From contig OY253680.1 in NCBI GenBank assembly GCA_958009085.1, forward strand, positions 868,001 to 932,000: a stretch of DNA of 64,000 nucleotides. The letters are read 5' to 3'. The translations under genes and the position numbers were made by a program. Positions within the stretch are counted from its first letter, which is position 1. Each line of letters begins with the position of its first letter. Of the stretch, positions 14,943 to 58,618 are shown in pieces. A model generated the notes under the pieces. It was given only the letters and a program-made list of their open reading frames with translations. It was not told the DNA's origin and ran no database searches. The stretch comes from Protoeuglena noctilucae (lineage: Eukaryota).

Positions 14943-17900
14943 ATGTCGGGCCCCGGGGCGGCGAGCGGGGAGGGCGGAGGCGTCCCAGCGCTGGTCGACG
15001 CGGATGATCTGGAGCTCGGAGCGCCTTTCAGTGGTGGCGACAGCGAGACGGTCGAGGTGCTGAGAGCGCGCTGGGTCTCGAAGGATCGGGATTTGGCGGT
15101 GAAGCGGGTGGACATGGACCTGCGCGGCACGGCTCCGAGGTCGAGGAGGGAAATGGTCCAAAGGAAGGCCGCGGATCTGGTGGAGATCGCAGCCGCGACG
15201 AGGAGTGCGACTGGCTTGTGTCCGTGAGTCGATGCTGCGGGTTGTAGGGCTGGGAACGAGATCGCCGATGATTAGTATAAACCTGGAACATGTCCTCGCT
15301 CTCCTGCAGGGTCCTGGGCGTGGCCGTCCGCGACCGGAGCCTGCTGGTGGTGATGCCGGTGTGCGCGCGTGGGTCGCTGGCGCAGCGCCTGGCAGAGGGG
15401 CCTGCCCTTTCGGCGCTGGAGGTAGTGGACGCGGCGGTGCAGGTGCTGGAGGGCCTGTGCGCCCTGCACGAGCGGGGCATCGTGCACGGCACGATCAAGC
15501 CCAGCAACGTGCTGGTGGACGACGAGGGGCGGCTCCTGCTGACAGACTACGGGCTGGCGGGGATAGCGGCGACAGCCGATGTCCAGGTGGGGCCGGGGCG
15601 CAGGAGGAGCGCTTGCCAAGCACTCTTGTCAACATCTGCCTGTGTGTCGTGGCAGATGCATACACTGGCAGTGCCCTCTCGGTCCGCCTCCGCAGCTGGA
15701 GCCAAGGAGGGTCGGCGAGGAAGCGAGGGTCGGCGCTGGGGTGTACGCGGCCCCGGAATGCAGGGGCGAGGGTCGACGTGTCGCGAGTCTCGCGTCGGAT
15801 GCGTACGCATTGGCAGCCGTGCTGTGTCACGCGGCGTCGGGTCAGGGGGCGCCCGCCGATGGCAGGCCCCCTGAAGTGCCGGATACGGTGCCGGAGCCAC
15901 TGCGGTCGGCGTTGCGGGGGGCGCTGCGTGAAGTGGCGGAGGAGAGGATGGGCGTGGCGGACATGCTGGTGGCCGCAAATGAGTCCAGGAGGTGAGTGCC
16001 TGGGTGGGCGAGGAGGAGGGCGTGGCACGCCAGGCGCATGTGGATGGGCTTGTGCGTGTGCAGCATCTCACTCCTGCGACGTGAATGCCCTCGCAGGGTG
16101 TTGCTGCAAACGTGCTGCATCTGCCGATGCGAGGAAGAGGAGGAGGCACTGACGGCGTGCTCGGCAGGGGCGCACCGCATCTGCAAAGAGTGCCTGGGGA
16201 GCCTGGTGGGGACGCTGGCGGACAATACGCGGGCACTGACTGCGGATGGGGACGTGGTGTGCAAAGAGAGCACGAAGCAAGAGTGCGGGGGCGCCTTTCG
16301 GTGCAACGAAATGGTGGAGGCGCTGGTGCAGACGCGGGCGGCAGCGGCGTGTGCGGGGTTTGTGCACGCCGTCCGAAGGCAAGCGTCGGCGGCCGCGGAC
16401 GCCAGGGCGGAGGCCCTGCGGGTGCGGGTGTTGGAGCTGGAGGCGGCAGGCATGGGTGCGGTGGAGGCGACCCTGGAAGCCCATCGGCGGGCGATGGAGG
16501 ATCTGCTGGTCGTGATTCGGTGCCCCGGTTGCCGACGCCCGGGGGACGTCGACGTCCAGAACTGCATGGCGCTATACTGCGCTCCGGATGTTGGCGGGTG
16601 CGGTAGCCACTTCTGCGCGTGGTGCATGGAGGCCTGCCCCGACTCGGACGCGGCCCATGCGCACGTGAGCGAATGCGGGCTGAACCCCAACCGACCGCAT
16701 CTGTACGCGTCAGAGAGGGACCATCAGGACAACGTCCGATGGGAGCAGCGGCTGCGGGTGGTGGCGCGTCTGCGGGACTACTTCACGAGGTGCCACATGG
16801 AGGTGGGGTGGGCGACTGAGTTCGCGACGCTGCCGGCGATCCGGGACCTGGGGTTGCGGTGGGAGGACGTGCGCGCTCACATGGACGGGGTGGTGGTGGT
16901 GCGGACCGGGGACGAGCTGGTGGAGGCGGCCAAGAGGGGCGGGGTGGTGGAGCTGGGCGGGGGCGAGGTGGTGCTGAGGAGGGCGGTGCGCGTGCGGGGC
17001 ACGAGCGTGACGGTGCGCAACGGGACGGTGCGGGTAATAGACGAGGAGATAGTGAACGACGGGTACGGCGTTCAAGTGGAGATGGGCGGGAGGTTGACGG
17101 TCGAAAATGTTCGGGTGGTGGGCACAGGGCTGAGTTGCGAAGACGGCGGGCAGGCAGAGCTTCAGGGCGTGGAGATCGCCGACTGCAGAGAAAACGGCGT
17201 GTTCTGCCGTGACCAAGGATCTAAGATCGTGGTGCAGGGAGGGCGCATTATGGGGTCCAAGGACTCAGACGGGGTGGCATGCGAAGAGGGCGGGCAGGTG
17301 GAGCTGCGGGGCGTGGAGATTGCTGACTGCAGAGAAAATGGCGTCGTGTGCACCGGCCACGGGTCCACGGTCGTGGTGCAGGGGGGGCGCATCACGGGGT
17401 CCAAGGACGGGGCCGGGGTGGCATGTGGACCGTGGGCAGGCAGAGGTGCGGGGCGTGGAGATTGCCGACTGCGAACGCAGTGGCGTGCTCTGCACCGGCC
17501 ACGGGTCCACGGTCGTGGTGCAGGGGGGGCGCATCACGGGGTCCAAGGGCGGGGCCGGGGTGGCATGCCTCGACGGTGGCCATGCGGAGGTGCGGGACGT
17601 GGAGATCGCCGACTGCAATGAGAATGGCGTGTCCTCCCGTGGCCAGGGGTCCAACGTCGTGGTGCAAGGGGGGCGCATCACGGGGTCGGTGGGTGAAAAT
17701 GGGGTGGCTTGTGAGGACGGTGGGCATGCAGAGGTCCGGGGCGTGGAGATCGCCAACAGCAATGACAGCGGCGTGTTCTGCGATGGCCCAGGGTCCAAGG
17801 TCGTGGTGCAGGGGGGTCGCATCACGGGGTCCGTGGAGCACAACGGGGTGGCGTGTCATGAGGGGGGGCAGGCGGAGGTGCGGGGCGTGGAGATCGCCGA

Positions 17901-18345
17901 CTGCAAGGAGTGTGGCGTGTTTTGCACTGACCAGGGGTCCAAGGTCGTGGTGCAGGGGGGGCGCATTACGGGGTCCAAGAACTTTGACGGGGTAGAATGC
18001 CAATTTGGCGGGCAGGTGGAGGTGCGGGACGTGCAGATCAGTGACTGCCGTCGGTACGGCTTGTCCAGCGACGGTCGTGGCAGCAGGATTAGCGGGGCCA
18101 ACATTCAGGTCGCCAGATGCCCCAAAGCGGTGTTTGTGACCAGGGGGGGGGAAGGTAGATGTGGGCCTCTGACGACGGGTGGGTGCTTGTTGGCAGGCGG
18201 ACAGGACTGGTCCACCCATGATCCTTCCAAAGCACCAATGCGCTGCAGCGTAACGGGGGAGAGTGCGATGGAGTGTGGGTACGGTGGAGTGAGTAGCCTG
18301 TCCGCCAACGGTTGCTTCGAATTGAATTTGAAGTGTAAGATGTAA
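14943..18345 (+). CDS. Pseudokinase + RING + IBR/Rcat-type Zn finger + right-handed beta-helix protein; 2-nt frameshift near 17428 (pseudogene, allele or assembly error)
   Basis: [73 protein letters not shown]; repeats GVEIADC..GV.C...[10 protein letters not shown]. Exons ~14943-15223, 15310-15586, 15698-15992, 16097-18345. Confidence 0.8.
17140..18060 (+). repeat. Seven tandem 144-nt (48-aa) beta-helix repeats
   Basis: The gtg(g/c)agat anchor falls at 17169, 17313, 17455, 17599, 17743, 17887 and 18031; all spacings are 144 except one of 142. Confidence 0.95.
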
Positions 18346-18427
18346 CGATAGGCAGCTGATGCAACTGCCAGCACTTGCATGTGTGTCACCTAAGAGGCTT
18401 CGGAGCGCTATCAAGTCCAGTCATCCT

Positions 18428-19638
18428 TCACTGTCGCATTGGTGGGCCAACCTCCACGTCCTTGCCCTTCACCCCACCGCCTCCCCTAGCCACGTCCACC
18501 GATGCGCCTTCCACAACACCCGCCTCGCTCGCAGCACTTGACGCTGCCGCATATGCCGACACCCCGCCCTCGACCAGCAGCCACGCGCCCATGAAGACGC
18601 CGTACACGAACTTGAGCGAAGGCAAATGGAATGGGCTTGGACGGTCACTGAAACAGAACACAATGTCAGCAACGCCCACCAGGATGGCTGCACGGCGTCG
18701 ATGCTGTCAATCCCAGCGCTCACCAGAGTGGCTCCATGGTGTCGATTTCGGCGCGGAAGCGGGAGACGTACGTGGTGATGCCCAGCACCACGGTGACGGA
18801 GGAGGAGAGGAGCAGAGCCATGGCGAGGGTTTGGAAGAGGACGAGGAACTGCGGGAGTGGGGCAGCGAGGGATGTGTGAATGGGCAGGATGGGAGGTTGC
18901 AGATGCGCAGGCAAGACGGGACGTGATGTGCAGGAATGGCTGCGCGTGCGAGAACACAGGCATGCCAATGAGTGCTTCGGGTGCCCAGGCCCTGCACCCC
19001 AGGTGGCCTGGCAGGCGATGCTCACCATCGAGTACCACGCAGGCTTTCGTTTCTTGAGCACGTGCATGAAGGGGCCCAGGAAGAGCCCCGTCGCGACGAT
19101 GAGGCACATGAGCGAGAAGGTCAGCCATCCAAAGCCCTTGTGCACATCTGCAGGAGTGGGTAGCTCATCTCATCGCAACCATCCTGCGCAGGTCATTCTC
19201 CTATCCGCGGCGTGCGCTGCGACATGCGACACCCCTGCTCACCTCCCAGTGACCCCTGCAACGCCTTGTACGCTGTGGCGCTCGCGGGACCGCTGTCAGC
19301 ACGGACGGCGACGGTGATCCCGGCCACGGCGAGAGCGAAGGACCCTAGGATGCACACGATGTGAGCCCACAGCCACGGCCTGGGCACCGCTTGGTAGACG
19401 CGCTTGGGCAAGGGCATCATTCTCTCGCGATGCCGGACGAGGAGCAGCGCGGCGGGGAGGAGGACGACGAAACCCGTGACCATCAGCGATCTGTGAGTCC
19501 AGAACTGATCGCTCGTGGAGGCCGCCAGGTGCTGGGTGGCGCCTGCGAGACAAATGGTCCCGGGACCCTCGCACTGCTGTCGCTGGGCCCGCACAAGCCG
19601 CTTGTCCACGCTGCCTCGCCTCTGTCTGTAACGTCCAT
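18428..19638 (-). CDS. Cytochrome b561-domain-like membrane protein
   Basis: Transmembrane helices with WTHRSLM, WLWAHIVC and VHKGFGW, His spacing typical of b561 domains. Confidence 0.6.
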
Positions 19639-20245
19639 GACGTTCCTCCTATACGCCTAGTTCAGCTCCCAGAGCGGCGTCCAGAGCAGCGCAGTCACAA
19701 CGCGCAGGCACGGTGAGAAGGTGCCGCGGACAAGGGAAGGACGCTCGCTCTTTCAGGACTTTATAAACTATGGAGCATGGCTGAGCGGCCACAAAAGTTG
19801 ATAAAGTTGCTACGACAGCAGCGACGTGGCTCAAAGCTCGATGATTCGCCAGGTGTCCGTTGGCATCTCCTGAAAGAAACTGTGTCGCCAGCACCCGGCT
19901 CGGCAACCCCCCGCATACGTCACCCGGTGCACTCCTGTGTTGTTCCAAGCCATTTTGTAAGAGCAGATCTTGCAGCCAGGGCGCCCCGAGAAACGGTGCC
20001 TGAGCTGTCACGGACGCTGACCGGCGCCGCTCGCGGTCGCGCAGGCGAGTGCGCTTGCTTGTTCTACCGATGGCGGCTGCCCGCCTGCCCGCCTGGCCGA
20101 CTCGTGCGGCTGCGGCACACCCATTTATCACTCCCAGGCTCTGCGTGGCCCTCGGATGACGCGGGCGCCCTCTCCCTCCCCCGCAGGCTCTGCAGGAGCT
20201 TGCAGCGAACTCTTCTTGCTATGTGGACTAGGGTAGCGTGACAAG

Positions 20246-23200
20246 ATGTCGCTCGCGCCCAGGTGAGGCTCGGACATGGCGCGCACCATGCGCTGCTGCG
20301 CGCCCGTGCCTCTCGCGCAGCGTGGGCCACCAGACGGCGCTCTCGCACTCTGTTATTCACTGCATTGCGAGAGGGGCAACCGGCCGGGGCCCGAGCGCAA
20401 CCCATCCGCCCGTGTCTGCAGGTGGGGATTCGGGCTCTCCAGCCCACAGGTCCTGTGGGCGGACGCCAACACGCTTGTATATCTTTCCGGTAACAGCGTG
20501 ATTGCGCACAACATCGCCTCGAGGGGTGAGAGCCGCTCCCCGCGCCGGAGCCACCCCGCCATGCGCCGCCCCCATTAAACGCGCCCGCGACCGGCGCTCC
20601 CGAACCGGGACCTCCCCGCACCTCGCGCTTTCGATTGACATTCACTTCGTGCTCCATCAAAGCCCCCCGTCGCGCCTCACGCCCCCCGCAGTGCAACACA
20701 TTGCCAAGTCCCTGGGCCTGGGCATCACGTGCTTCACGCTCAACCGCAAGTACGGCCTGGTGGCTTTCAGCGAGCGCGGGGAGGGCTATCACCCGCACAT
20801 TCGCGTGTGCCGGCTGCCCGAGTTCGGCGGCCAGGAGTTCCGGCGCCTGGCGACGGTCGACGCCACCCACGGGGACGCCGAAGTGCTGGTGGACTACTCG
20901 GCCCTGGCCTTCTCCTCCGACGGCCGCCTCCTCGCGGCGTGCGGGGGCGCGCCGGCCCCGGCCGTGACGGTCTGGGACTGGACCGACCACCGCCCGGTGG
21001 CCACGGTGCGCCTGGACGCCCCGGCCACCTTCGCGTCCTTCGACCCCTTCCAGCGCTCCCTCCTGTGCGTCTCCACGCCGCGCGGCTCCACGCTCGTGCG
21101 CGTGGACGCCGAGGGGGACGCGGCGGGCGGGCACCAGTCGGCCGCCCTCGACTCGGGGCACGGGGCGGCGGTGGCCCACGCCTGGGCGGGGCGCGGCCTG
21201 CTGCTGTGCGGGACCGACCGGGGCCGGCTGGTCTACACGCGCGTGGAGGAGGCCGCCGGGCGCCTCTCGCAGTCGCACTTCAGCCCCCCCGACGTGGCCG
21301 CCAGCGGCCCCATCACGCGCCTGGACCTCAACGCGGCCTTTGCCTTTTGCTCCGTGGAGGGGTCGGCGCAGGTGCACGTGCTGCGGAGAACGAGGCTGTC
21401 CGAGTCTGACGAAGAGTCGGACGCTGGGGAGAATGACCTCATGAGGGGCGGCATGCGGACGAGCGGCAGGGCGGGGGCGGGGGAGGGGGTGGCGTTTGAG
21501 GAGACGCTAGAGCCGGCCGGCGCGGGCACGGCGCCCTCCGGCGTGCGGCACCTGGCTGTGGGTGGCCCCGACCACGCCGTGCTCCTGGCGGTGTGCAGGG
21601 GCGGGCACATGCTGACGGGCGTGACGGTGAGCGGCGGGCGGGAGTAAACAGCGCTTTCGCAATTCCACGCTCCCTATGCAGAAAGCCAACACTTCAGTGA
21701 TGTTCAATGCCCATAGCAAATGCCCATAGCAAGCCCCCGCTGTCCCCTTCCCCCGCTCGCAGGGCAAGGACGGCTCCCTGTCCCTCCACCCCCTCCTCGA
21801 CTTCCACACCGGCCCCATCCGCGCCGTGTGCCCCCTCTCGGACTCCGTGGTGGCCACGGTCGACGCCAACGGACGCGTCGCCAGATGGGAGACCGACACC
21901 TTTGCGCCCCTCTCGTCCGCCCAGGCCGGCGGCGGCGTCACGTGCGTCGCGCACTCGCCCGCCACCCGCACCATCGCCGTTGGCGCATCGTCCGGGGTCC
22001 TGCGCCTCTACCGCGCGGACGCGGGGGGTGGCCTCACCCTGTCCGCCCGCTTCAAGCTGCACCCGGAGGCGGTCGCGCGCGTGTGCCTGTCCCCCGCGGG
22101 GGACTGCGCCGCGTCCGTGTCCTCGGACAGCAAGCTCTACTTCACGCAGGCGGCCGCCGACGGCACCTGGCGCGCCATGGGCTACGCGACACCCCCTGAT
22201 CCAGTCCTAAGCATGTGCTGGCCGGACGCAGGCGCCGTGCCCGCGCCGCTGCTGCTGATGACGGCGGCGGGGGAGGTGGTGTGGGTGCAGACGCCCCCCC
22301 GCGACGCCCAGGCCGGCCGCGACCACCGCCTCCCCACCAAGCACGCCCCCATGAAGCGCATGCGCATCGACCACCTCGTCGTGGCCGCCGCGGGGGTACC
22401 CGGGAAGGACATGCCGTCTATTCTGGGCCTGACGGGCGACCGACACCTGCAGATGTACGCGGTGCCCAAGGAGCTCCAGTCATGGTCCACCAGTGAGCGA
22501 CATGGGTGGTGTTAGTGTGGATGATGATGTGTCTTGTATGGCTGCTATGCAACGCTTTGTGGCACTGCTGCTCTTCCCTCTGTCCCTGCTTGCCATGACC
22601 TGCACCCTCACACCGTCACACGTCTCTTCCCTCACTCCCCTCACCTGTTGCTCTCCACCCCCGCAGCTGGCGCGAGGGGCGGTCGCTTGCACGCCCCCGA
22701 GCGGTCGGTGGTGGCGCATGACAGGGCAGCCACGAGCATCGCGGTGGCGCCTGACCGCGACCACCTCCTAACCACCTGCGAGGACGGGTCGGTGCGCATA
22801 TGGGGGCCAGGGCTCACCGGTGAGCGAGGGCGGTGCTGGGAGGTGTAGTGGGATGGACTGGGCTGGCAGCAAGCGATGGCACTGTGCCGCCTCCCTTGCT
22901 CTGCGCAACCCCTCCCGCGGAATGCCTCGCACATCTCCACATGCGATGTCTGTTCAACCTCCCCTCTCTGCAGTGACTCTTCCCGTGTCTGAGGGCCACC
23001 ACCTGCACAGCCAGTTCACGGGGGGGTGCACGGCGGCTGCCTTTGCCCGCCGGGGGACATTGGTCGTCACCGGTGGTCAGGACGGCACTGTGCTGGTCTC
23101 TGTGCTGCACGGCATACAGGTGACGATGCGCGGAGGCAGGCACCGTGCTGGTGGAGTGTCTGTCTGTGACTCTTTATACGCATTTACGCCCGCCCTTTCA

Positions 23201-26200
23201 CCGCATCCCAGCCACCGCGTCCCTCCCGTCACCGCCTCTCAATCACCGCCTGTCACTGACCCCTTCTCTCACTAACCCCTTCTTTCACTAACCCCTCCCC
23301 TCACCCCTCATCCCCCCAGATGCACATCCCCCCCGACGCCGACATGTCCACTCCCCTGCCCATCCCTGCTCCCATCGACGATGTGGAGGACACTGAGGGC
23401 GAGAAGGACGCGGCAGAGCTTTTCGCGGCTCAGATGGACGCGACTGCGAAGGCCAGGGCGGAGCCAGCCACGCGGAAGGTGCTGGAGAGGGTGGAGGAGC
23501 TGAGGAGGCAACTGGCGTCGTGCATCGAGAGGTGAGGGGGTGGGTGTATAGGGTTAGATAGGGATGGGTAGGAGAGGTGCTGGAGAGGAGTACAATAACA
23601 TAGCACTAGCCTGCAAATGCTATCGTCTCTTGTACAGAGACTCCCTGCATACAGAGGCATGACGAGCACGGCGTGCATTCATCCCTTACCTGCACCCACA
23701 CCCTATCCCCATCCCGGATCGCAGGAACAAGCTGGCGGACGCCTCGGAGCGTCTCACGGAGGACGAGCTGGTGGTGAATCGCTCCCTGCTGGCGCGGCTG
23801 GAGGCGGAGGCGGCGGAGGAGGTGGGGGATGTGAAGCGTCGCATCGAGCGGCGCGACATGGAGAGGGAGGTGGTGCGGGCGCGCATCCTGCGGCGGTGCT
23901 GGGACGCCATGGCCACCAAGCCCGCCACGGTGTGCGCGGTGCGGTCGAGCGCCCGCGTCCACAACTTCCCCATCACGCACGCCAGCCGCATGACGCGAGT
24001 GGCCGCCAAGCTGCTGCTCTTGCGCAAGGCAGAGGCGGCGCAGCGCAAGCATTTGGGTCTGGATGACTGGAGCGCCAAGCTGCGGACGGCGGAGGTGCCG
24101 CCGGACATCGCGGGGGCGACGGCAGCGACGGGCCCGGCTGCCCCCATGCAGCCGGCGCCGAGCCTGGCATCGGCTATCACCGCCGTGGGTCTGCCCAACG
24201 GCCCCGCGCACGCGCACTCGGGCGTGGAGCTGCCGGCCGCTGCCGTGGCGGCGAGCGGGTCATCCGAGGGAGAGGGGGACGACGACCGTGCGGTGGTGAA
24301 GGGGAGCGAGGACTGCATGGCGGGGATGAGGGACGAGGGCGACGGGATGCAGGGCATCATGTACGCTCCCATGGACTTGCTCGCTCGCTCCCGGCGCGTC
24401 ATCCAGGTGTACCTGCTGGCGTTGAGGGTGGTGGGGGTCAAGGCAGAGTTCAACCGGAGATTCGAACAGGTGACCTGAGGGGGTGGGGGTGTTAGTGGAT
24501 GGGGGTGGCGAGCAGTCGCAAAGGGGCTCAGCGTAAGTTGTTTTGTAGTTAGTAACAACCATCTGGAGGCATCACGCCATCACGTAGTAGTATACCACAC
24601 CTTCATGTGCCGCACCACTCCCCACCCCACCCCTCCCTTGCCCCCCCTAGGTGGTCTCTGAGAAGCACGCGGAGTTGGAGCGCGTGGCGGAGGTGAATGC
24701 GCGCATCCGCGACGTGGTGGCGGACCTGGCGCGGCTGTCCGGGGGGGCGGCGAGGGCGGACGCGGACGCGGGGGCAACGCCGGCCATGGACCCGGAAGAG
24801 GTGAGGGGCGGTGAATGGGTGTGTATTTATATGTGTATATTTAACATGGTAATAAGTTGGTAACGATGGACCCAGAAGAGGTGAGGGGCACAGCAGATGT
24901 GGGTGCCACGATAGCAGACATGCACCCTTCCGTCTCTCATCTTCCCTGTGTATACACTTCTACCACAGATACACACTTTCTCCTTCATCCCACGTCTCAC
25001 CTCCCCACCTCTCTCACCCCCAGGACCCCTCGTGGATGCTCCGCGTTTCTGACACCGAGGTGCAAGTGGAGCGTTTCCTGACGCGGGAGGAGAGGGAGAG
25101 GGTCGAGGCGCAGAGGGCCGAGGAGGAGGCCAGGAGGGCGGCGCTGGCCAGGGACAACGGTGAGGGGAGGGTGGATGCTGAAGAGGGGTGGGGAGTGTTT
25201 TGTACTGAGTGTGGTGGTGAGGCCAGGAGGGCGGCGCTGGCAAGGGACAACGGTGAGGGTGCTGGTGGATGATGGGGAGGGGTGGGGGAGTGTTGTGATG
25301 AGTGTTGGGGTGAGACAGGAGGGCGGCGCTGGCAAGGGACAACGGTGAGGGTGCTGCTAGGGAGGGGTGGGGGAGTGCGATTGTTGCAGTTAGTGAGACA
25401 TAAGGGTGGTGAGAGCGTCGTGATGAGTGTTGTGATGAGACATTGGGAGGTGACAGTGTTGTAGTGAGTGTTGTGATAAGCCACGATCTCACCGTCGCCA
25501 CACCACCCACCACGCTCACCCCTCACCTCCCCTCCCTCCCCCCAGCCGCCGAGCGTGCCCTGAAGGAGATGATGGGCGGCACCCTGGACCGCGCCGAAAG
25601 CGAGGACGAGAGCCTTGCCTTGGTGCGCCCCGCATTCATGGACATGGACCCAGCCAAGTGGACAGACGAGCAGAAGAAGGCAGCACAGGAGTACAAGGCG
25701 CGGGAGGTGGCGGTGAAGGAGGAGAGGGACAAGAGGGTCATGGGGCTGGAGACGGAGGTGAGGGGCTGGGGGGTGAGAGTGATATGGGCAGTGAGTGAGG
25801 AGGTGGAGAGGAGTGAATGAAGGTTGGTGCTTGATATACCTGGCTCTGACATTTGCATGGACACGTTTGTTCACTCACCGTCACCCACACCCACACCCAA
25901 ACCCACCCCCACACTTGCACCCACACCCCCAACCCCGCTCCCCCTCCCCCTCCCCCAGCTCCGTGGCGCCAAGTCGATGATCGAGGAGATCCTGTTAAAA
26001 GTGGACAAGTCCGTGGAGACGCTGCGATCCGAGCGCGTGCGTGCCGAGTTCGCGGTGGCGGTGCTGGAGCGCCGCATGGTGCGGGTGGCGGAGGCGGCGG
26101 ATGCGTTGTTGGAGCTGAGCGCGCAGAGGGAGCAGGAGCTGGTGGCCGAGGTGGCCAGGGCGGACACGGCCAGGACCAAGAAGAGCACCGAAGTCATCGA

Positions 26201-28137
26201 GGTGAGGGGGAGGGGACACTCAGTTCCACTTCCATTGCCACCCTTAACACCACCCCCACTGCCACCCTCCCTGCCACCCCACATCTCACCCTCAAGCCCC
26301 CACTCATCCCACTCACACCCCCCACCCCCCTTACTCCCCCCCAGGCCCGCGAGGACGCGGCGGCCCACGCCCGCCTGGCCGACCAGGCCCAGGCAGAGGA
26401 CCGCCAGCAGGAGAAGCAGTTCCGCAGGGACTTCCAGGAGGTGTCCGACTACCTCCCCGCCCTCACCGCCCTCTACCGCAAGCGTGTGTACCTCGCCCAC
26501 CCCGCCCCCGACCGCGGACCCCAGCGCGGCCTCTCCCGCCGCCTGTCCCGCCGCGCTTCATTGGCCAGCCACCACGGCGGCGCGTCCAAGCGGGCCTCGT
26601 CTCGCGGGCTCAGCCGCGGCCCGTCGCACGGCCGGGCGTCTCGCATCTCCGAAGACTCTGAGGCGGGGTCGCCGGGCGCTCACGCGTTCGAGTCTGTGGT
26701 GGGGGGGTACGCCAATGCAGAGGACCCCGCTCCCTCGATGGGAGCGCTTGACCCGCACCCGGGCGCCGGGGCTGAGCCGGTGACGGCGGAGCACGTGGCG
26801 CCCCTGGGGGTTGAGGAGTGCCCGCCTGGGCTGGAGTCCGCGTGGTGGGAGCGGCTGCTGGCGGCGAGGGAGGCGAAGATCGAGACGGAGAAGCGGCTGA
26901 GGAGGGCGCAGGAGGTGAGGGGTGGGAGAGGATGAGGACGAGGAAGGGTTGGGGTGGTAGGGCAGTGCGGTGGAGCATGTCAATGCTACTAACATGTCGA
27001 CAGTTTGTCACACTTATGCAACCTCTTACTCAATCGCTGACTCACCCGCTCCCCCACTCACCCCTCCCACCCCCTCCCCCACCCCCAGGTCCTCTCCTCC
27101 AAGCAGTCCCGCCTGGCGCGCCTGGTGGCCCAGGAGGCGGCGCTGTCAGAATCGGTGTCACGGGCGTCAGAAACCCTCGACGAGTTCCGTGCCAGGCGCG
27201 AGGCGCTTCTTTACGACTTCGAGATTCCCCTGCTGCTGAAGCAGGGGCAGGTCGAGGCGCGGCCGGCCGAGGGCGAGGACGTGCTCAGGGACGGGGAGCT
27301 CATCCACGCCGGGAACGTGCAGGCGGTGAACAGGGAGATACGGTGAGTGACTGGTGATGTGTGGGTGATTGCGCTGGTGCTGGTGTGAGTTCTTGGCTTG
27401 TGCCGTGCACTTAGCTCGAGCCAGCTCCCTCGCTTGCTTGCCTTTATCCATCGCTTGCTCGCCCTTGCATCGCTCTCTCTCACAGTTGCTGTTGCCCCCC
27501 TGTGCCTCACCGGGCCCCGCCCACCCCCACCGCCCTCCGCAGGGAGCAGGGCCAGCGCAAGATCGACATCTTGGTGGACATCAAGGAATTTAAGCGGGGC
27601 ATCTACGAACTTGAATGGGAGAACCGTCGTTTAGCCATGGAGGCGGAGGACATGAAGGAGCGAACACGGGAGCTGCAGCTCTTGCGCGTTACCAAGGAGC
27701 TCCAAGAGGCGCTCAAGTCCAACGGGGGCGACGCGGGGGGCGGGCAGGTGACCAATCTCGAGAAGCTCACCAAGCACTCGGCCCGGCTGCACGCCAAGCG
27801 CATGGACGAGAAGCGGCGGCAGATGGGGGCGCTGGAGCGGGCCGTGGCGGAGCGGCAGGGGCAGAACGAGGACCTGGAGGAGAGGCTGCGGAAGATGGAG
27901 CAGCTGGTGGGCAAGGAGGGCCGCATCCTGCAGTCCAAGACGCTGCGGCACAACGCGGGGGGTGCGAGCCTCATCAGCCGCCGGATGCGGTCGCTGGTGA
28001 CCAAGGCGCGACTGCGGGACATCTCGCGGCAACAGGCGGAGGAAATCGAGATGCTCGTCGCAGAGGTCGACCGGCTGCGGTCCAGGACCTTCCCTACTTT
28101 TGTGACTGTCGTCCACGACAGTGCAACGGGGGTGTGA
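20246..28137 (+). CDS. CFAP43: Cilia- and flagella-associated protein 43 (WD40 + coiled coil)
   Basis: MSLAPR|WGFG...WADANTLVYLSGN N-terminus, WD40 exons, long coiled coil, LLLKQGQVE, C-terminal EVDRLRSRTFPTF. Confidence 0.85.
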
Positions 28138-28431: not shown

Positions 28432-31400
28432 TCACTCGGACTCGGCCCTCTCCTCGCCCACCCGGGGCCTCTTGCCCTGCGGCGTCCCAGCCCCATCCGC
28501 CCTCGCCCGCTTGGTGCCCTTCCCCTTCGCAGGCGTCGCGCCGTCCGCCTCCCCCGCCGCCCCCTCCGTCACCGGCCCCTCCGCCTCGCCACCCCCGCAC
28601 CCGCTGACCGTCACCCCCCTCCGCACGATGCTGCTCGTGCTCTGATCGTCGGCACGCATGGCCACGCCCCCGCAATCAGCAATCACCACGCCCCGCAGCT
28701 CCGCCTTCCCGCCCTTCCAGCAGTGCACGGCGTCGCCCTTGGCCCCCGCCACGCCCCCGCTCACCATCTTGAGCATCGCCCCGCTCTGCACCCCCACCCC
28801 TGCACCCCTCAGCCACACGTGCTCCAGCGTCACGTGCCGGCCCCGGGCGGGCGCGTGCACCATCCACTCCTCCAGCCCCTCCGCAGCCACGAGCGTGCCG
28901 TTTGACAGCGTGATCTTGCCCCGCGAGACGCGCAGCGTTGACCGCAGCGTCACTTCCGCACCACCCAGGTCAGCCTCAAAGCCTTTTGCGTCTGCCGCCA
29001 ACACCGACTCGACCAGGAGAGCCTCGGTCCAGGGCCCAGAAAACGCCTCGTCCTGCACGCGTGTACGCGCGGCACATGTCAAGCTGGGAGGCGTGCATGG
29101 GCACGGCCGGGGTGCATACACACGGGCGGTATCTACATCCAGTTGCCGTCGCATTTCACCTTGCAGAACGACAGCATGACGTCCCTCTTGGCCAGGATGC
29201 CGCCCTTCTTCTGCTCGACGCCCGGCCCGACGCACTCCACCACCTCCACGCCCTCCATCGTCAGCGCCCCCTTGTCCCCGCACGCCGCCCCGCCCCACAC
29301 GCACCGCGCGATGCGGCCCCCGCGCACCGTAGCCACGCTCTTGTCGTGCGACACCCACACCCCGCGGCCCCCGCACCCGTCCACGTCGCAGTGCTCCACC
29401 TTGACCACGCCACCCCCCACGCACAGCACCCCGCTGCCGCGGCACCGCATCAAGCGTACGTTGCGCACCGCGGCCTCGCCTTCCGCTGGCTTGCCCCCCT
29501 CCACGTGCACTCCCGTGCGGCAGTCCTCGATCGCCGCCCCCTCCACCTCGACCTTCGCTCCCGGCCCTGAGAACACACCAGGTCCCTCTGCCGCCGACAC
29601 CGTCCCGCCCCGCACCAGCACTGCCGACCCCTCGCCCTCCCCGAACACCCCGCCAACCTTGCACTCTGAAATCGCGACGCCGTCCGCCTCCACCTTCCCG
29701 CCCTTCGCGCACCGCACGCCGTGGCCGGTAGCCTTGGCGATGCGTCCATTCCGGACGCTCGCGCTCGCATTACTTCCCTCCACGACTACCCCGTCCCCGC
29801 ACCCCTCGATCGCCGCCCCCTCCACCTCCGCCTTGCCTCCCACGCATGCCACCCCAGCCTCCTTGCAGCCCTCGATGCGACCCCCGCGCACCATCGCCTG
29901 CGCGCCCGACCGCGCCCGCACCCCCGCACCCACGCACGATGCCACGGCGGTGTCATGGAGCTCCACGGCGCCGCTCTGCATCTCCACCCCGTCCTGGCGG
30001 CACTCGTCGATGCGCCCGCCCCGCACCACCAGCCTCCCGCCGCCCGTTGCCACGATGCCTGACTCGCATTCGCGGATCTTGACACCCTCAACCGTCACAC
30101 TGCCGGCGGTGAACTGCAGTCCTTCCCCGGAGCACCCGGCCACCGTGCAGTCACGCACCGTGGCCCCGCCCACCGTCCCAATCGACATCCCCGGACCCCA
30201 TGCGCCCGTCACGGATGCCCTCTCCACCTCCACCCTCTCTGCGCCCTGGCATGTGATGCCCCCGCGCTCCACCCCACCCCCCTCCATCCGCAGCGACGCA
30301 CGGTTGAGTTCCATCCCCCCGCCGCGCAGCCACAGGTCGACGAAGGTGACACGCGTGCCCTTACCGTCCGCCAGAACCAGGGGCCCGCGCAGACCCTTTT
30401 CGGCCGTGAGAGTGCCGTTCCGCACGGTCACCCTCCCCCCCGTCACGCACAGCCCCATGCGCATCGCCACCTCCTCTCCACCCAAGTCGACCTCGAGAAA
30501 ACCCTCCGGGCCCAGAGCCTGGGCAGCCTCCCACAGCACAGGGCCTGTCCACGGCCCCGCAAAGGCGACATCCTGCACGAAGAAGGAACGAGATGTAAAG
30601 GTGAAGTCACGGTGCTTCGCAAGCATCGGCCACCAGCGCCAGCGAGCTTGCGGTATCCATATCACCCCCGCACCTTGCAGCCCTGGACCTGGACGTCTTT
30701 CTTAGTCACCACGCCGCCACGCCTCTCGCTGACGCCGGCCCCCCCGTACCCGGACACCTGCAGCCTCTCGGCCGTAACTCTGGCCCCGTCGCTGCACAGC
30801 AGGCCCCCGAAGGCGCAGTCAGAAACCCGACCGCCCCGCACCGTCGCCCGGCTGCTCGTGTGCGACACCCACAAGCCGTGGCCCTTGCACCCCTCGATGT
30901 CCGCATCGTCGGCATCCACGGCGCCCCCCTGGACGCACGGGATGCCGCTGCCGGAGCACAGCTGCACCGCCACCCGCCGTAGGGTGACCTCCCCGCCCTT
31001 CGTGCACAAAACTCCTGTCCCCGGGCAACCCCGAACGACGACCCCATCGCTCAGGTCCACCTGAGCGCCACCCGATACGTCCACGCCGGTGCCGCACAGC
31101 TCCACGACGAGGCCCTTGGTCCCCTCGACGCGGCCCTTGTCAGCAGCGACCACGCCGGCGTGGCCGCACTCGGCGACCTTGCCGCCGTGAACGGCAGCCT
31201 TGGACCCGGCTCCCTCGACCCGCAGTCCCTCTCTGCACTGCGACACGTGCACCCCCTCCACCTCCGCTCTGCCGCCCTCGCTGACCAGCACGGCAGCCCC
31301 GCTCTTGCAGTTGACCACACTGCCCCCCCGTAGCGTCAGGCACGCCGACTCTCCTTGCGCAGTTACTCCGTCCCAGTTGCACCCACCCACGGTCGCCCCG

Positions 31401-33720
31401 TCCACAAAGACGTTGTCAGTCTCGCACAGCAGCCCGCCTTTCCCGCAGTCCGACATCGTGACCGAGCGCAGGACCACCTTCCCGCTTGCCTTGCCCTCCT
31501 CGCCGCCCAGGATGTGAACTCCGTAAGCATTTCGGATGTCTGTGACCCGCAGACCCTCCAGCTGCGCTCCCCCAACGTCCTTCAGGCTCACCCCTCCCTC
31601 CCGGCACTCTGCAAAGGTCCCCTCACGCACCACCAGGCGCGTCTCAGGGCCCTCCGCCGCCAGCGCCACGCCCTGGCACCCGTTAACCGTCGCCGAGGTC
31701 ACCTCGCATGCCAGGGCGCCGCCGAGCCTCACGCCGTCGGCCTTGCATCCCATGATGCGGCACCCTCGGATGACGACGTTGCCGGGGCTGCCCTCTCCCT
31801 CGCCACTGAGGCGCACTCCGCACTCAGCCGCATCGTGGATCTCCACCCTGTCCAGATGTACTGTTCCGCAGCGATTGGAGAACACACCATTAGTGGCGGC
31901 ACCGATGATCGCCCCACGGGTCATCCGGATGGACGCCCTGTTGCCTGCCTGCAGCCCTTTTCCGTGCAGCCGGACGCTCGATAGCTGCAGCTCCGTCCCA
32001 CTGCCGTATGCGAACAGCAGGTACTTTCCTCCCATGTCATCAACGGCTTTGAGAGTCCCGTTGCGAATGGTGAGCCTCTTGAGCCCGCCCACCGACAATG
32101 GCGTCCTGACCCGCACGGTGCCGCCGTGGAGGTCGATCGTTGCCTCGTTTTCACATGCCGCAGCGATGGCCTCGGTCATCAGTGCCTCGGTCCACGGACC
32201 CTGGAAGGACCGGCTCTGCGGACTCGAAGCATCACAGCATGGTCGCGAGCTGACGTGCATGAGGTCAGTGCAGCAATCCTGCCTAAACCGTAACGCAGAG
32301 CATCCCATGCATCACCACAGGCAGACACGGTTCCAAACCCCACGTAGCTAAACCACCAAAACGGCAGCTATCAGTTACACACCTGGCACCCGCCAACGAC
32401 GACGTCCTTGTGCTTGAGCAGCCCCCCGTCCCTCTCCTCCAGGGCGACTCCGAAGCACTCGAGGACCTCCGCGCCATCCACCTCGGCCGTTGCGCTCCAG
32501 CTGCACAACAGCCCTGCCATCCCGCAGCGCCGGAGGCGTGCGCCACGCACGGCGGCCTGGCTGCCTTTGCCGCTGACCCACAGGCCTTGGCCCGCGCAGT
32601 CAGCCACATGAAGGTGCTCCGCCGTCAGTCGGGCGCCGAGGATGCACAGCACACCGCTTCCGGCGCACCCCGCAACCATGAGCCCACCCAGCGTCGCCTC
32701 GCTATTCTCGCCCTCCACCCACAGCCCTGTCCGCCCGCACGCAGTGACTTCCGTCCCCGGCCCTTCCACACGGAGCTTACCCCCGTCTGTGCATCGGAAG
32801 CCACTCTTTTTGCATGCTGTGACCCGGACTCGCTTAACTTGAACGACCCCATTCCAGGAGGACTCCACCCCAGAGTCGCATGCGACAACCTCCAGGTCCT
32901 CCAGAGAGATGGCGGCGTTGGAGCTGACCACACCACTGCCCGCGCATTCCAGAGTCCTGCCGCCGCGGATGCTCAACACCGTGTGGTTGACGGATTGGTT
33001 GCCCTCACCCTCATCCTCTTGGGCCACCGACGCGTATATGCCGTAACCTCGGCAGTTCCTGATATCGATGCCCTCCACCTCCACCTGTGCCGCCTCCGCC
33101 GGCCCTTGGCACTCGACCGACAAACCCTCGAAGCACCCGGAGGTTGTGACGCCCGACAGCACCATCTTGCTCAGGTCGCGGCCAGTCTTCACTGAAATGC
33201 CCGTGCCATGGGTCGCAGCGACCTCGACGCCGGTCAGCTGGACGGACGCGGCGTCCTCGCAGAGCATGCCGACGCCGCAAGCCTGAGAGACGCCCCCGCC
33301 CTCCATGTTCAGGGTTGCCCTCTCGCGCACCTCGACACCCGCCCCTCGCAGCCGCACCATCTCGAGCTCGACGAAAGTCTTCTCGCCTTGGATCACCATG
33401 GCTTGCGCGACTCCGTATCCTGCCACGAGCGTGCCGTTGCGCAGGCTGACCCGGCCTTGCAGGGGCAGTGGGGCGCCGAGCAGGACCTCGCTGCCGTCGA
33501 GGTCGATCCGCGCTCCGTCCTTCTCCGCGGACTGCAGCGCCAGTCGCAGTCGCTCCTCCGTCCATGGCTGCGCCTGCGGCGGGGGCTGGATCTGGGGCAC
33601 GCGCCGGTTGGGCTCAGCGGTTGGCATTTTGCCGCTACCGCGCTCTACGATGCTCGCGGCTCCGTCTGCGCCTGCTCGCCCCGCCGCGCCCCACCTAATC
33701 GACCATGACGTCATCAACGA
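28432..33720 (-). CDS. Large protein of four tandem right-handed beta-helix modules, one per exon, with a basic NLS-like tail
   Basis: Phase-0 introns 32382-32216, 30673-30573 and 29159-29053 join four ORFs in frame. Each module begins (F.G)PWT followed by (I/V/A)DL.G..V....L.......NGTL. 5' end uncertain. Confidence 0.8.
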
Positions 33721-34119: not shown

Positions 34120-37098
34120 CTAGCGCGCCCCGACCGCGACCTTGCTCGCGGCCCCCTGCGCGATGCGGTCCGCAAACTCCCCGTAGCTGTACTCGACCAC
34201 CTTGCCGAGCGCCACCCCGGACACGTAGTTGCCCCCGAGCACGACCCCCTCGAGCCCCGCCTCGTCCAGGGCGCGCCGGGCGGCCGCCAGCGTCTCGTCG
34301 TGGCCCACGTTGAACTGCGGGCGCCAAATTGACGCGGCCCATTCGTCGATACGTGGCCAACTTCCCACCCTGCATGGTTATTTCAATCACACGATGCCTG
34401 AGTTAGCGCACTGCGCCCGCTGCTCGCCTGGGGGATGGCCCTGGGCCACACACGGATGCCGACCTTGATGGCCGGGGGCGCGTCCTCCTTGATGAGCATC
34501 TGCCTCACGTCCCTGTCCACCTGCGCCAGGATCTGGTCCTCGGTCTGGTCGACGATGGCCCGGTTGGTCGCACCGCCGATGTAGCTGAGGTGACGAGAGG
34601 GGGCGGGGGGTGAGAATCGCTGGGAGAGCACCCCACTACCTCAGCTCCCCACTCTCTCATCACCACAGCAGCAGCAGCAGCACGCATGACCGCACCCTCT
34701 CTGCACTGCCCCGTCACCCCTCCTCACCACAGCAGCAGCATGCAGCACCCCACCCTCCCTGCATGGCGCACCACCCCTCCCTCACCACAGCAGCAGCATC
34801 ATCTCCTCCTCCGCCCTCCCCGGGAAGAGAGACGAGGAGTAGATGGTCCCCAGCGTGACGATGCCCTGTGAGCGAGGGTGCAGCTGGCCGAACCCAGGCA
34901 CGGCCCCGCTGGCGTCCCGCCGGTCGTCACGCACGGCGCTCTTGGGGTACGCCACCGTCACGGCAGCCACGGGGGGATAGTCTGCGAGGGAAGGAGACGG
35001 GTGGGTGATGGGCCACAGTCACGGCAGTCAAGAGAGGAGGGTGTGCCGCCTAGTACTAAGGACGGGGATGACGATGACACGGGACTGTTCCCATGTTCCA
35101 GCCCAGCCCCTCATGCCACACGGGTGCATGGCCTGGTCTCACCAAACGCCCTCAGCGCCTCGGCTGCCTTGGGTGCCAGAGACTCCACGACGCTCGCCAC
35201 GGCGTACGAAGGAGTGGTCATGGCCACACGGCGAGCCTTGACCGTCTGCTTGCCGTCAGGGGTGCTGCAGAGAACACGGGGAACTGTGTATGCTGCTGAA
35301 CATGGCACAGCAAGCGCTGACAGGCTTTAACGACGGTCGATGCACTGCCATCAATCGCCCACATCCCTGCTCGCCATGGCCTCACCTGTAGGTCAGCTCG
35401 AACGTGCCGTCGGCCGCCTTGGCCAGGCTCTGCAGCGTCCACCCCGTGCGGATCTGCTCCTTCATCGTGCCCGCCAGAGCCTTGGGCAGCATCTGCAGGC
35501 CCTTGCTGCAAGGGAAAGGCGAGGGGGGGTAGCACATCAAATGGACAGACCTCCTAGCCCCTTCCGTCAACTCTCTCCCAAACACGCCCCACTCCCTCAC
35601 CTGCCCCCACACCCATATGTGCCCCGCGCACCCTCACCAGAACGATCCCACCGTCTGCCCCTTGGGCTTGGGCGGCAGGCGCGGGTCCCGGGGCGGCGGC
35701 GGGTTCTTCTTTCTGTCCTGAATGAGCTTGATGGCCCCACCGACCAGGGAGCCCCCCTCGGCCTCGAGGGAGTGGATGCGCCCAAACGCGGCCTTCATGG
35801 AGAGCTTGGACGGGTCCCCCGCGTACACCCCGGAGCAGAAGGGCTCGATGAGGCGGTAGAACACCTCGTCGCCCAGGTTGCGCTGCGGGGGACACGGGTG
35901 CAGGGCATTGAGCAGGGCAGGCACGAGATGGTGGGGTGCGTGACCATAGCAAGGGCTGCGTGACCAGCACACTGTCAACACATGCCCAATTCCTCACAAC
36001 ACACTCAACCTCACGTTTCCCATCACTTCACGTCTCCCTTCTCCCACCCAGCCCCCGCAGCCACATCCCATCACATCCCATCACGCATCTACATCCCAAC
36101 CCATCAGGCATCATTGCTCACCCGGATGAACTGCTCCACCGTCTCCTCGAACGATGGCATCGGCCCCGCCTTGTAGAGACCCACGGCGCCCAGCCCCGCC
36201 CGGATCTTGCCCCACAGGGACAGCAGGTCGAACGTGAGCACGTCGGGGCCCGAGGGCGTGGCGCGGAGCTTCTTCTCCCAGAAAACGAAGCGGGGGGCCT
36301 TGGGGTCGCCCAGCACCAAGTCCTTCTCGATGCCTGCAGTTGGTGCGAAAGAAGGGGTCAGACTGCTCCAGGTGGGGATGCGCACGGCCTGGGGAGCAGT
36401 AGGTGGGCGACGAGTGTGTTAGGGCGTGGCACGCGCACCGGCGTCGACGGCGATCTGCAGCATGGAGTCGTTGGGCTGGAAAGAGTTGGGGCCCTCCTCC
36501 CAGACGTAGTGCCGTCCCTCGACGTCGCCCTCCATGGAAGTGATGTTGCCGCCCACGCGGTCGCGCGCCTCCGTGATGAGGAAGGAGGTGCCCTTGTGGC
36601 GGGTCTGAAGGGCCTGACCGGCGCAGAGGCCGGAAAGGCCGCCTCCGACGATCACCACATCCACGGAAGTCGCCGCGGCGCGCGCCCGCTGCGGAGGGGC
36701 GGGAGGGCAAGGGAGTGTCTCCAGTAGCGCGCGCGGCTCCCGGGATCGCGGGCAAGCAAGCTAAGCATTGCGAGGCAAACATCGACATCGATGCGCGCAG
36801 TCCAGGCGCGAAAGAATCGGCGCGCTTCGCGCACGCTCGGATGAGATAAGTCGGCTGCAGTGGGCGATGCAGTGCCGCCGGGAGGCTCCGCATCGACGCG
36901 CGGGAGGGGCGCGAGCCGCGATGCAAACGTCAAAGGGCACACAGAACTCGCGGGTGCTCCATCCGCGGCCGCATCGACCAAGTCAGAGCAGAGATACACG
37001 GCGACCCCTCGGGCAGTCACCAGGCTCCGGGATCGCAGCGCCCGCCCCCTGGCAGGGCAGCGCGTCAGCGACGACGACTGGGAGGACGCGGAGATCAT
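34120..37098 (-). CDS. PPOX: Plastid protoporphyrinogen oxidase
   Basis: [74 protein letters not shown]; transit-peptide-like first exon at 37098. Confidence 0.95.
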
Positions 37099-52300: not shown

Positions 52301-54238
52301 GCATTGTGGACAGCCCAGGGGGTAGTAGGGGCACTGCGCATGCGGAGAGAGCGGTGGGGTCGAGAGGGGCAGGAGCGGTGCCGGTGTCGCTGCCAGCCAC
52401 GCCCGTGAGCCAACACGGCGTGGCGCACGATGGGCCTGGCAATGGGAGCGTGCAGGGCAATGGGAGCATGGATGGCAAGTCCATCCACAGATCCATCGAC
52501 AGGTCGATTGACAGGTCGATGGATAGACCAACACCGAGTAGGCTGGACGTCCTTGCTCCCTCGCTGACCCCCGCATTGACGGCGTCCCGCGAAGACGCCC
52601 CGCGGCTGGGTGGGGCGGTGGGGGCCGCCACGCCTCAGATGGCCCTGGGTGGTGGCACCCCACATGCCACGAGCGCTGGGAATGGGAGCAGTGGGGGTGG
52701 CACTGTGGGTGGCGGTGGTGTGGGTGGGAGTGCTGTGGGTGGCAGTGCGGTGGGTGGTAGCGCTATCGGTGGCAGTTGTGGGGGTGGCAGTGGTGTGGGT
52801 GGTAGCGCTGGGCTCAGCGGTGCCCTTGGCGGTGCGGTGGGTTCCATAGCCCCCGTCTCTTCCTCAGCAGTGGCAGTGGCAGTGGCGAGCAGCCCCGCTC
52901 CTAAGCTGGGCGTGTCGGAAGAGCCATTGGTGGCGTTTGTGCTGCGGGAGTCGGGCAGAGGGGTGAGGCATGGGGAAGGGTGGGATGAAAACATGGAGTG
53001 ATTTGTTGTGACGTGATGTGACCTGTTGCCACGCCACAGCGCATGTGCTGCAGTTGTCTCAACACACCACGCATCGCAGTGCAGTGCAGCAGTTGCCTCG
53101 CCCCTTCGCCCACCCCCCGCAGTCGATCCGCAGCGCCGGCACTGCCGGCACTGCCTTGGATATCGGATCGAATCCGGCCTCGTCCCTCCCGCGACCGGCC
53201 CTGGACGCCACCCTGCGCCCGCCCCCGGGGTCACCAGAGCGGTCGGGGGATGGGGAGGGGAGGGGCATGGGGAATGGGGAGGGGAGGGGCTGGGATGATG
53301 GGAATGGGGAAGGGAGGGGCTGGGGGTCGCAGCGGAGCGTGGGACAGCCCCACAACGCTGCCGAGAGTCGAAGCCCTGTTGCGAGAAGGCCTGTGGGTAC
53401 TGGGCCAATAGCAGGGCCAACAGCCGGGGTGTCAACAGCGAGGCCAATAGCACGGGCAACAGCTGGGCCAACAGCGGTGGGGCTGTCAAGGAGGGATGTC
53501 GACGCTTCCCTCCTCGCGTTGCCTCGGATGGCGGTGCCCCGGGTGTCCCTGGGGGTGGAGGAATCGGACGGGTTCCATTACCGCCGATTAACGGGGATAG
53601 GGCAGGTGCCCTTCGAGGGGAAGCACACGGTGTTCGTCGACACGCCAGAGAAGACGCCAGAGAGGGGTGTCGCGGGGGCGGTGGGGAGGGCAGACGCGGC
53701 TGCTGCGCTGTTGGTGGAAGTCGATTCGATGCGGGGAAAGTGCGACAGCGACGGGGGTGGGAGCGTGGAGCTGGTGGTGGATGGTGGGGCACAGAGCGCA
53801 CCACAGTCGGGGCGTGCGGGGACGGGTGCGAGGGGTGCGAGTAGGGGCAGGGGGACAGGCAGGGGCGGGTCTGGGCCTGGCAAGCACGGGGGTGGGCGGG
53901 GCGGGTCTGGGTCCCAGTTGCGTGAAATGCAGCGGCGTCGGCAGCGGTTGCGGGCGCGTCGGCAGGCGCAGGAGAGCGACAGCGAGTGGGGCAGCGAGGG
54001 GGGCGGCGGCAGTGACAGCGATGGGGAGTACGTGCCATCGACAGCCAGCCGGGGGCAACGGGTGCAGAAGCGGGGGCGCGAGAGCGGTGACAGCGATGGG
54101 GAGTACGTGCCATCGACCGCCAGGGGCAGGCAGCGGGTGCAGAAGCGGGACCGCGGCGGTGAGGGGGCGTGGGATGCGGAGAGGAGAGGCGGGGGGCGGC
54201 GCGCGGTTGCGGTGGTGGGGGGGCGTGGCGACACATGA
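46338..54238 (+). CDS. Ulp2/SENP-like SUMO protease (peptidase C48) with an N-terminal Cys-rich motif and a long low-complexity C-terminus
   Basis: DLDYLLDEEFIHDQ, HFFDPHFF, KWTKGVDIFSK, PINSALHWSL (His), LDSL (Asp), RQTNYYDCGLFV (Gln, Cys). Whether 46338-47200 and the far C-terminal exons belong to the same gene is inferred. Confidence 0.8.
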
Positions 54239-58595: not shown

Positions 58596-58618
58596 GGGTT
58601 TAGGGTTTAGGGTTTAGG
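58596..58618 (+). repeat. Interstitial telomere-type repeat (TTTAGGG)3
   Basis: agggtttagggtttagggtttagg. Confidence 0.85.

Follow-up and report, generated by a model that had tools for sequence, protein, structure and literature searches.

Short tandem repeats whose first unit lies across an exon-intron boundary have been described before. In amphioxus they are called "mirages" and occur in Adh3, in the globin genes BflGb6 and BflGb9, in TnC and in PGBD5; boundaries of both kinds, 5' and 3', are involved, the units measure 10-160 bp, splicing is left undisturbed, and a role as a source of new introns has been proposed (PMC3087553; PMC3902484). In human F7, the first unit of a 37-bp variable number tandem repeat (VNTR) in intervening sequence 7 (IVS7) lies across the boundary, and of its identical donors only the one furthest upstream serves in splicing; further human boundary-spanning minisatellites, named in the same report, lie in IFI6-16, CBS, LMNB2 and PDGF (PMC1557585). 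Here we analyze a 64,000-nucleotide (nt) stretch of Protoeuglena noctilucae (contig OY253680.1, positions 868,001 to 932,000 of the forward strand; hereafter the window, with coordinates counted from its first letter), and in particular two introns of its CFAP43 gene. An original prediction for this stretch had proposed that the ends of CFAP43 exons, together with the adjoining donors, are copied again inside the downstream introns, and that no named phenomenon covers such a pattern. The copies, which we refer to as junction echoes, are real. The lack of a name does not hold up, since mirages and human boundary-spanning minisatellites are described (PMC3087553; PMC3902484; PMC1557585). As amphioxus mirages and the F7-type minisatellites of human genes already represent this kind, nothing categorically new is shown. 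The notable feature is the density, with about one intron in ten carrying a junction echo within 64 kb, compared with a handful of human genes known.

The CFAP43 assignment comes from neighbouring plus-strand exons that match the Cfap43 coiled-coil family PF25828 (23726-24469, E 3e-13; 27544-28131, E 1e-34). Locally, frame and splice signals place exons at 24651-24800, 25024-25159 and 25546-25757. They enclose an intron of 223 nt (24801-25023), chosen by the gene finder and preceded by an exon whose frame is open, and an intron of 386 nt (25160-25545), identified by frame and splice signals, by the gene finder and by alignment to a homologue. Protein searches gave no help with the splice form, returning only an unspliced open reading frame of the same locus (four cluster members) and generic WD40 matches, and the protein atlas contained no usable relative. 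A metagenome scan yielded a single locus, L001, a CFAP43 homologue of 45% identity that runs uninterrupted across the region; it served as a length ruler for the protein, not as an orthologous intron. L001 (1-3763, 1254 codons open) is apparently intronless, in contrast to the intron-dense gene of the window.

In the 223-nt intron, the authentic junction at 24786-24809 (plus strand) consists of a 15-nt exon tail, ending at 24800, and 9 nt from the start of the intron. A second copy lies 80 nt downstream at 24866-24889, on the same strand, with 23 of 24 positions identical. The authentic GT lies at 24801-2 and that of the echo at 24881-2, and use of the donor at 24881 would add 80 nt and shift the frame. 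The two copies differ only by a G to A change, which falls on a third codon position in the exon copy. Between the two copies lies a spacer of 56 nt (24810-24865, plus strand; 32% G+C) that is duplicated nowhere in the window: it has no significant match to either flank (the best is an 8-nt match, p=0.04), and it has no 11-mer in common with the rest of the window, on either strand, apart from low-complexity words.

The 386-nt intron holds an array, also on the plus strand. Tandem Repeats Finder (TRF) reports a 93-nt unit at 25126-25356 with 2.5 copies, 89% matches, 3% indels and a score of 355. Unit 1 (25126-25218), placed by TRF and by the homologue alignment, spans the exon end at 25159 and the authentic donor GT at 25160-1. 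Unit 2 (25219-25311) is wholly intronic, and its echo donor at 25253-4 would add 93 nt, in frame and with no stop. Unit 3 (25312-25356) is partial, with a 41-nt core identical to that of unit 2, and its echo donor at 25345-6 would add 185 nt and shift the frame. The 41-nt block thus occurs three times, at 25131-25171, 25224-25264 and 25316-25356; copies 2 and 3 do not differ from each other, and copy 1 has 88% identity over the 41 nt. The sequence between the blocks is also homologous from unit to unit, with matches in 42 of 54 aligned columns and an alignment score of 51 against a shuffle maximum of 40. The array is a whole-unit tandem repeat in which the junction part is better preserved. 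The same intron contains a 41-nt tandem repeat found by TRF (25394-25477, plus strand; 2.0 copies, 81%) that is related to the tail of the 93-nt unit and is the sole intron-internal array in the window with a period of at least 36 nt.

Most of what had been predicted for these two introns is confirmed, namely the second copy of the 24801 junction block at 24881, the three copies with donors at 25160, 25253 and 25345, and the open frame through the 25253 copy (+31 aa). The prediction also held that the sequence between copies is much less similar than the copies themselves. This is correct for the 24786 pair, with its unrelated 56-nt spacer, and an overstatement for the 93-nt array.

Chance is excluded as the source of the repeats, since 47 local pairs of repeats, at least 20 nt long and with spacings of 25-400, occur in the window, while 20 randomisations by a block-wise first-order Markov model averaged 0.1. 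The stretch is contained in 12 public runs from three studies, four of which were compared with the window. Run X4, the only independent DNA run in this comparison, has the same copy number as the window. Its contig 19 covers 17937-25253 with zero differences and includes both copies of the 24786 echo. Contigs 20 (25235-25345) and 21 (25327-26262) start or stop exactly 30 nt into the identical 41-mers, because a graph built with k=31 must break there, and contig 20 bridges array units 2 and 3. The depths of the three contigs (132, 121 and 118) indicate that the loop was traversed once, and hence that three copies of the 41-nt block are present.

Donor choice can be read directly in PPOX, a minus-strand gene of the window. 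Here a 14-nt exon tail plus donor is found three times within 34660-34799, at 34780-34799 (authentic), 34722-34741 and 34660-34676, with spacings of 58 and 64 nt; TRF places the array at 34672, with a 58-nt unit and 2.2 copies. RNA contigs from runs X7 and X12 join 34786 to 34584 and skip 201 nt, bounded by GT and AG on the minus strand. The first of the three donors is therefore used, and the echoes are intronic. For CFAP43, the protein spliced at 24801 and 25160 aligns to L001 free of gaps over both junctions (score 423), while the form with 31 additional residues needs a 31-residue gap (score 398). The upstream donor is thus probably the one used in both CFAP43 introns. As for the suggestion that the echoes could generate alternative donors, none is seen in use among the RNA-contig joints listed, PPOX RNA shows the upstream-most donor, and the upstream donors of CFAP43 give a protein of the length of its homologue. 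The echo copies are not read as coding and appear to be silent. Two of them differ from the exon copy solely by a G or C to A change at a third codon position, which fits an unconstrained copy in a gene set whose third positions have about 90% G+C.

Two further minus-strand introns stand apart from the PPOX array. The PPOX intron at 34315-34427 is of the GC-AG type and is supported by RNA contigs of two runs. The intron at 34982-35142 contains 16 nt that match part of the downstream exon, at a distance of 61 nt, in 15 of 16 positions, which may be chance or a decayed acceptor-side echo.

Further junction copies occur in two other plus-strand genes. The first is a gene for an Ulp-type protease, assigned through a Peptidase_C48 match in the exon next to one of the echoes. 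At its acceptor (48747-48838), a block of 29 nt comprising acceptor and exon head is present twice, 63 nt apart, with 27 of 29 positions identical and a unique 34-nt spacer; the echo lies upstream, and the 63 nt between copies are in frame and open (+21 aa). A donor echo in the same gene (48952-49061) repeats a 24-nt exon tail plus GTGA 82 nt downstream (27 of 28 positions), around a unique spacer of 54 nt. The second is an unnamed gene at 50.7-51.8 kb, with an exon model that rests on frame and gene finder only. In its first array (50869-51190), an exon tail of 34 nt plus donor occurs about four times; the first two copies are identical at 43 of 43 positions and 83 nt apart, and the two later copies are degraded, at spacings of 57 and 113 nt. 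TRF lists this family at 50963, with a period of 57 nt and 4.1 copies. In the next intron of this gene (51508-51612), a 50-nt unit lies across the exon end and donor, with 2.1 copies and 89% matches by TRF. The direct-repeat scan and the reading of individual loci thus agree with the earlier statement that PPOX and the Ulp gene show the same pattern as CFAP43.

The echo donors are identical to the authentic ones from -3 to +6 in CFAP43, in the first two PPOX copies and in the 50869 and 51508 arrays; they are weaker in the Ulp-type gene (GTGATC compared with GTGAGT) and in the third PPOX copy. AG directly precedes GT in three of six donor echoes. The spacings of the donor echoes are 93, 58, 64, 83, 57, 113, 50, 80 and 82 nt, three of the nine being counted as multiples of 3, and the acceptor-echo spacing of 63 nt is a multiple of 3. 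By structure the echoes fall into two classes. Whole units are repeated, with homologous spacers, in four cases (25126, PPOX, 50869 and 51508). In three others (24786, 48952 and 48747), a direct repeat of 24-29 nt encloses a unique spacer of 34-56 nt. These three spacers have no significant match to their flanks (beyond the 8-nt match mentioned above, p values were 0.3-0.99), no other copy in the window on either strand and no common 11-mer apart from low-complexity words, and two of the three have 32-35% G+C compared with about 66% in the genome.

To place these cases among the introns of the window, we used a set of 60 introns. RNA-contig joints are available for 13 of them, and the remainder come from a codon-usage and splice-signal gene finder trained on RNA-supported exons. 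The first pass of the gene finder over-chained exons; 57 introns with well-scoring flanking exons on the dominant strand were kept, to which we manually added 50903-51330, 51532-51798 and the RNA-supported 36334-36438. In 6 of the 60 introns, a copy of the donor junction 20-mer (-14 to +6) with at most two mismatches occurs further downstream in the intron, while for the remaining 54 the best intronic match has at least five mismatches. Exon-internal control probes, taken 24-44 and 54-74 nt upstream, gave such a copy in 0 of 120. These counts apply, within the window, the comparison of exon tail and donor with the intron against controls that was proposed together with the original prediction. 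At the acceptor, the junction probe matched in 1 of 60 introns, with four mismatches. Intron-internal 20-nt tiles had a downstream copy in 5 of 351 instances, all five inside junction-spanning arrays. As an observation on echo calling, the 23-nt tandem repeat at 1637-1681 looks like a plus-strand donor echo and is actually the C-rich 3' end of a minus-strand intron (1630-1728), a case that advises caution in calling echoes on one strand.

The introns are very short, with a median length of 132 nt after duplicated material is subtracted, and this affects what is expected in the absence of any targeting. In a placement model, a blind duplication of 50-93 nt that leaves the exons intact would span the donor in 29-58% of events, or in 23-37% if acceptor-spanning events are equally allowed. 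With short introns and blind placement, a high share of junction echoes is thus expected without targeting. The prediction had pointed to a process that duplicates splice junctions. Recurrence is evident in the window (CFAP43 twice, PPOX, the Ulp-type gene twice and the unnamed gene twice), but a specific aim at junctions does not follow, given the output of the blind model, and a junction-targeted process is unproven.

We consider it fairly probable that the echoes are neutral small local duplications, tolerated in very short introns and of the same kind as mirages and F7-type minisatellites. Local duplications with units of about 50-95 nt would arise through replication slippage or unequal exchange, or when staggered breaks are filled in and their ends joined, with the first unit straddling the exon-intron boundary. 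Echoes would be frequent because the genome is rich in short tandem duplications and the introns are very short, so that a large share of the duplications that spare the frame must overlap a junction. Some would have grown into short minisatellites by further duplication of units, as suggested by CFAP43 units 2 and 3, which have common changes absent from unit 1. The spliceosome would take the upstream-most donor, as seen in PPOX and as is likely in CFAP43, and the extra copies would be removed with the intron. The mRNA would then be unchanged, and for this reason the copies could persist. If donor choice works as in human F7, donor echoes should outlast acceptor echoes, because the first donor is chosen; the observed ratio of 6:1 agrees with better survival of donor echoes, and the sole acceptor echo stays in frame.

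Several observations weigh against this explanation. The pairs at 24786, 48952 and 48747 are not tandem duplications, yet all three lie on a junction. Each of the seven duplication families found among the 60 introns takes in a junction, and purely internal families are absent; for the six donor-spanning families with zero internal ones, the nominal probability under blind placement is about 0.008, a post hoc value from one window in which the hypothesis was raised on the same data. The exon tail plus donor is the best-kept block in four of five arrays compared. When five pairs of units are compared, 173 of 178 aligned positions agree within the junction block, against 144 of 221 outside it, a contrast that is partly circular as the block is delimited by its own identity. 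It also holds between CFAP43 units 2 and 3, both of them intronic, where the block matches at 41 of 41 positions and the remainder shows 35 matches, 3 mismatches and 26 gap positions, and in the 50869 array, with 43 of 43 in the block and, outside it, 22 matches, 2 mismatches and 17 gaps. Such preservation of the block is not predicted by simple neutral decay following a single duplication. It may reflect a tendency of the G/T-rich spacers to slip, gene conversion in short tracts from the constrained exon copy, selection acting to keep the echoes or error-prone synthesis of filler at origin. As to donor use, an X7 RNA contig resumes at 25545, preceded by 44 letters upstream, and for the two CFAP43 introns the support for the upstream donors is indirect, from the homologue. 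No echo-donor joint occurs among the 15 of 33 RNA-contig joints listed, and such contigs drop rare variants, so that minor use is possible.

The first alternative is a mutational process focused on junctions, in which breaks or paired nicks at the exon-intron border are followed by fill-in of the staggered overhangs, sometimes with filler DNA. Short staggers with filler would leave junction-filler-junction pairs, and longer staggers would leave whole-unit duplications. We regard this as unlikely. In its favour, no family among the 60 introns is purely internal, a blind duplication of 24-29 nt would seldom strike a junction, and the three short pairs flank unique spacers in the way that overhang fill-in plus filler would produce; these three pairs are the strongest hint of a border-focused process of break and fill-in. 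Sequence composition changes sharply at the borders, with 41% G in the first 50 nt past the donor hexamer and 43% C in the last 50 nt before the acceptor across the 60 introns. Staggered breaks are moreover known to yield small tandem duplications through fill-in and end-joining, as documented in mammalian cells (PMC8355091). On the other hand, the case comes from a single 64-kb window and from the data on which the hypothesis was formed, and the blind model by itself places 29-58% of 50-93 nt events across the donor. Constraint on the exon copy halves the decay of a junction pair, and the low-complexity interiors of introns lose detectable repeats faster. In-frame duplications of similar size are also found within exons (75 nt at 54012).

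In its more specific form, this process would make exon-intron borders hot spots for staggered breaks, perhaps at the edge of the G-rich 5' zone during transcription, with fill-in re-copying the junction with or without filler. We consider this version quite doubtful. If it were true, the echoes would mark a transcription- or splicing-linked mutation that lengthens introns from their 5' ends and continually seeds spare donors.

A functional role for the echoes, as additional U1-binding or decoy donors or as regulated alternative donors kept by selection, would explain why the block is preserved while the spacers drift. The contrast between block and spacer identities given above is the main point in its favour, together with the 25253 echo (+31 aa) and the Ulp acceptor echo (+21 aa), both in frame and open. 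We nevertheless consider it very unlikely. Three frame-keeping spacings out of nine correspond to the chance rate, and the open 31-codon frame is weak evidence, as G-rich sequence seldom contains stop codons. The preserved block includes an exon tail of 14-34 nt that is unneeded for U1 binding, and the lone third-position changes to A in two echoes are what an unconstrained copy would be expected to show. PPOX RNA contigs show the first donor only, and the +31 aa form of CFAP43 has no counterpart in the homologue. The echo copies have no demonstrated function.

That the echoes are an assembly artefact, or the footprint of a mobile element such as an introner or a transposon with target-site duplication, is highly improbable: the assembly is probably metagenome-derived and direct repeats around an insert resemble target-site duplications, but the same sequence, with zero differences and at single-copy depth, is found in run X4 of another study, no spacer has a second copy within the 64 kb, the introns form no sequence family (an all-against-all comparison of the 60 introns gave only C-rich tail matches and nothing introner-like), and target-site duplications are usually far shorter than these repeats of 24-43 nt.

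Other repeats of the window lie within coding sequence. An exonic tandem duplication of 75 nt (54012-54148; 25 codons, 36 of 37 and 20 of 21 positions identical) keeps an open frame and ends just before a donor-like GGTGAGG near 54159, indicating that duplications of the same size class survive inside exons when in frame. Two G-rich minisatellites, at 51942-52123 (periods 18, 27, 36 and 45 nt) and 52703-52810 (15 and 45 nt), lie in a 421-codon open frame (51736-53001) starting at the acceptor at 51798. The Gly-rich repeats that they would encode have the form GGMGSAVGMGG or GGSAVGG, and third codon positions are T-rich compared with the usual 90% G+C. Coding repeats of 144 nt occupy 17136-18039 (plus strand). 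On the minus strand, 29139-33573 contains three large paralogous exons of 478, 514 and 397 codons; the two that were scanned, 478 and 514, match Beta_helix PF13229 and NosD, and the 38-nt repeat at 29525, whose copies are spaced 279 nt apart, is part of these protein repeats. Whereas the spacings of the donor echoes do not follow the reading frame, the exonic array periods of 144, 279, 75, 45 and 36 nt are multiples of 3 with open frames, although TRF also gives the 17136 array a period of 286, which is not.

Beyond the repeats, the region 54000-58000 forms an island of 47-55% G+C, compared with about 66% in the genome, and includes a (TATTA)n tract at 56084-56217. Neither the open reading frames of this island nor a read-through across the Ulp acceptor echo gave a convincing Pfam family, the only match being a sub-threshold one to Ribonuclease_P (E 0.0068). 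An interstitial AGGGTTT run at 58595-58618, with 3.4 perfect copies, resembles a telomere repeat. Scans of the window with Rfam for RNA families and with ARAGORN for tRNA genes were negative.

If the density of echoes holds genome-wide, this organism would offer a natural system for donor choice among identical sites, for the growth of short introns at their 5' ends, and for the question of whether alternative splice sites or new introns can stem from small tandem duplications. Literature searches for the same pattern in algae found nothing within the collection and the search terms used.

The echoes also invite comparison with a model of intron gain. In the Rogers model, introns are reportedly gained by tandem duplication of a segment containing AGGT, the new intron starting at the GT of copy 1 and ending with the AG of copy 2. 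The window resembles this model in that a short genic tandem duplication supplies duplicated splice signals. Intron gain of this type does not fit here, as the introns of PPOX (from RNA) and of CFAP43 run to distal acceptors past all copies, and the CFAP43 acceptors are C-rich.

Boundary-spanning minisatellites are the nearest known kind, the amphioxus mirages among them. As in these (PMC3087553; PMC3902484), the window shows minisatellite-like duplications that span either boundary and reiterate splice signals, with internal units more alike than the boundary unit. A head-to-tail unit across the boundary, which characterizes mirages, is present at 25126 (93 nt, 2.5 copies), 34672 (58 nt, 2.2 copies), 50963 (57 nt, 4.1 copies) and 51508 (50 nt, 2.1 copies), and splice sites are reiterated inside the intron. 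The cases at 24786, 48952 and 48747 fall outside the strict definition; unlike mirages, they are single direct repeats around a unique spacer and not arrays. The host also differs, as a GC-rich marine unicellular eukaryote with very short introns and copy numbers of 1.3-4. Mirages show allelic or somatic length instability; for the window, run X4 gives the same copy number.

The human minisatellites (PMC1557585) differ in scale and in detail. Their arrays have 5-25 or more copies in long introns, compared with few-copy arrays in short introns here, and the F7 unit includes only 4 nt of exon as against 14-34 nt in the window. Scanning from 5' to 3' was shown by mutagenesis in F7, while in the window we infer it. 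In its essential arrangement, however, F7 is alike: the first monomer holds the exon end and the donor, and the most upstream site is the one used, as in PPOX of the window.

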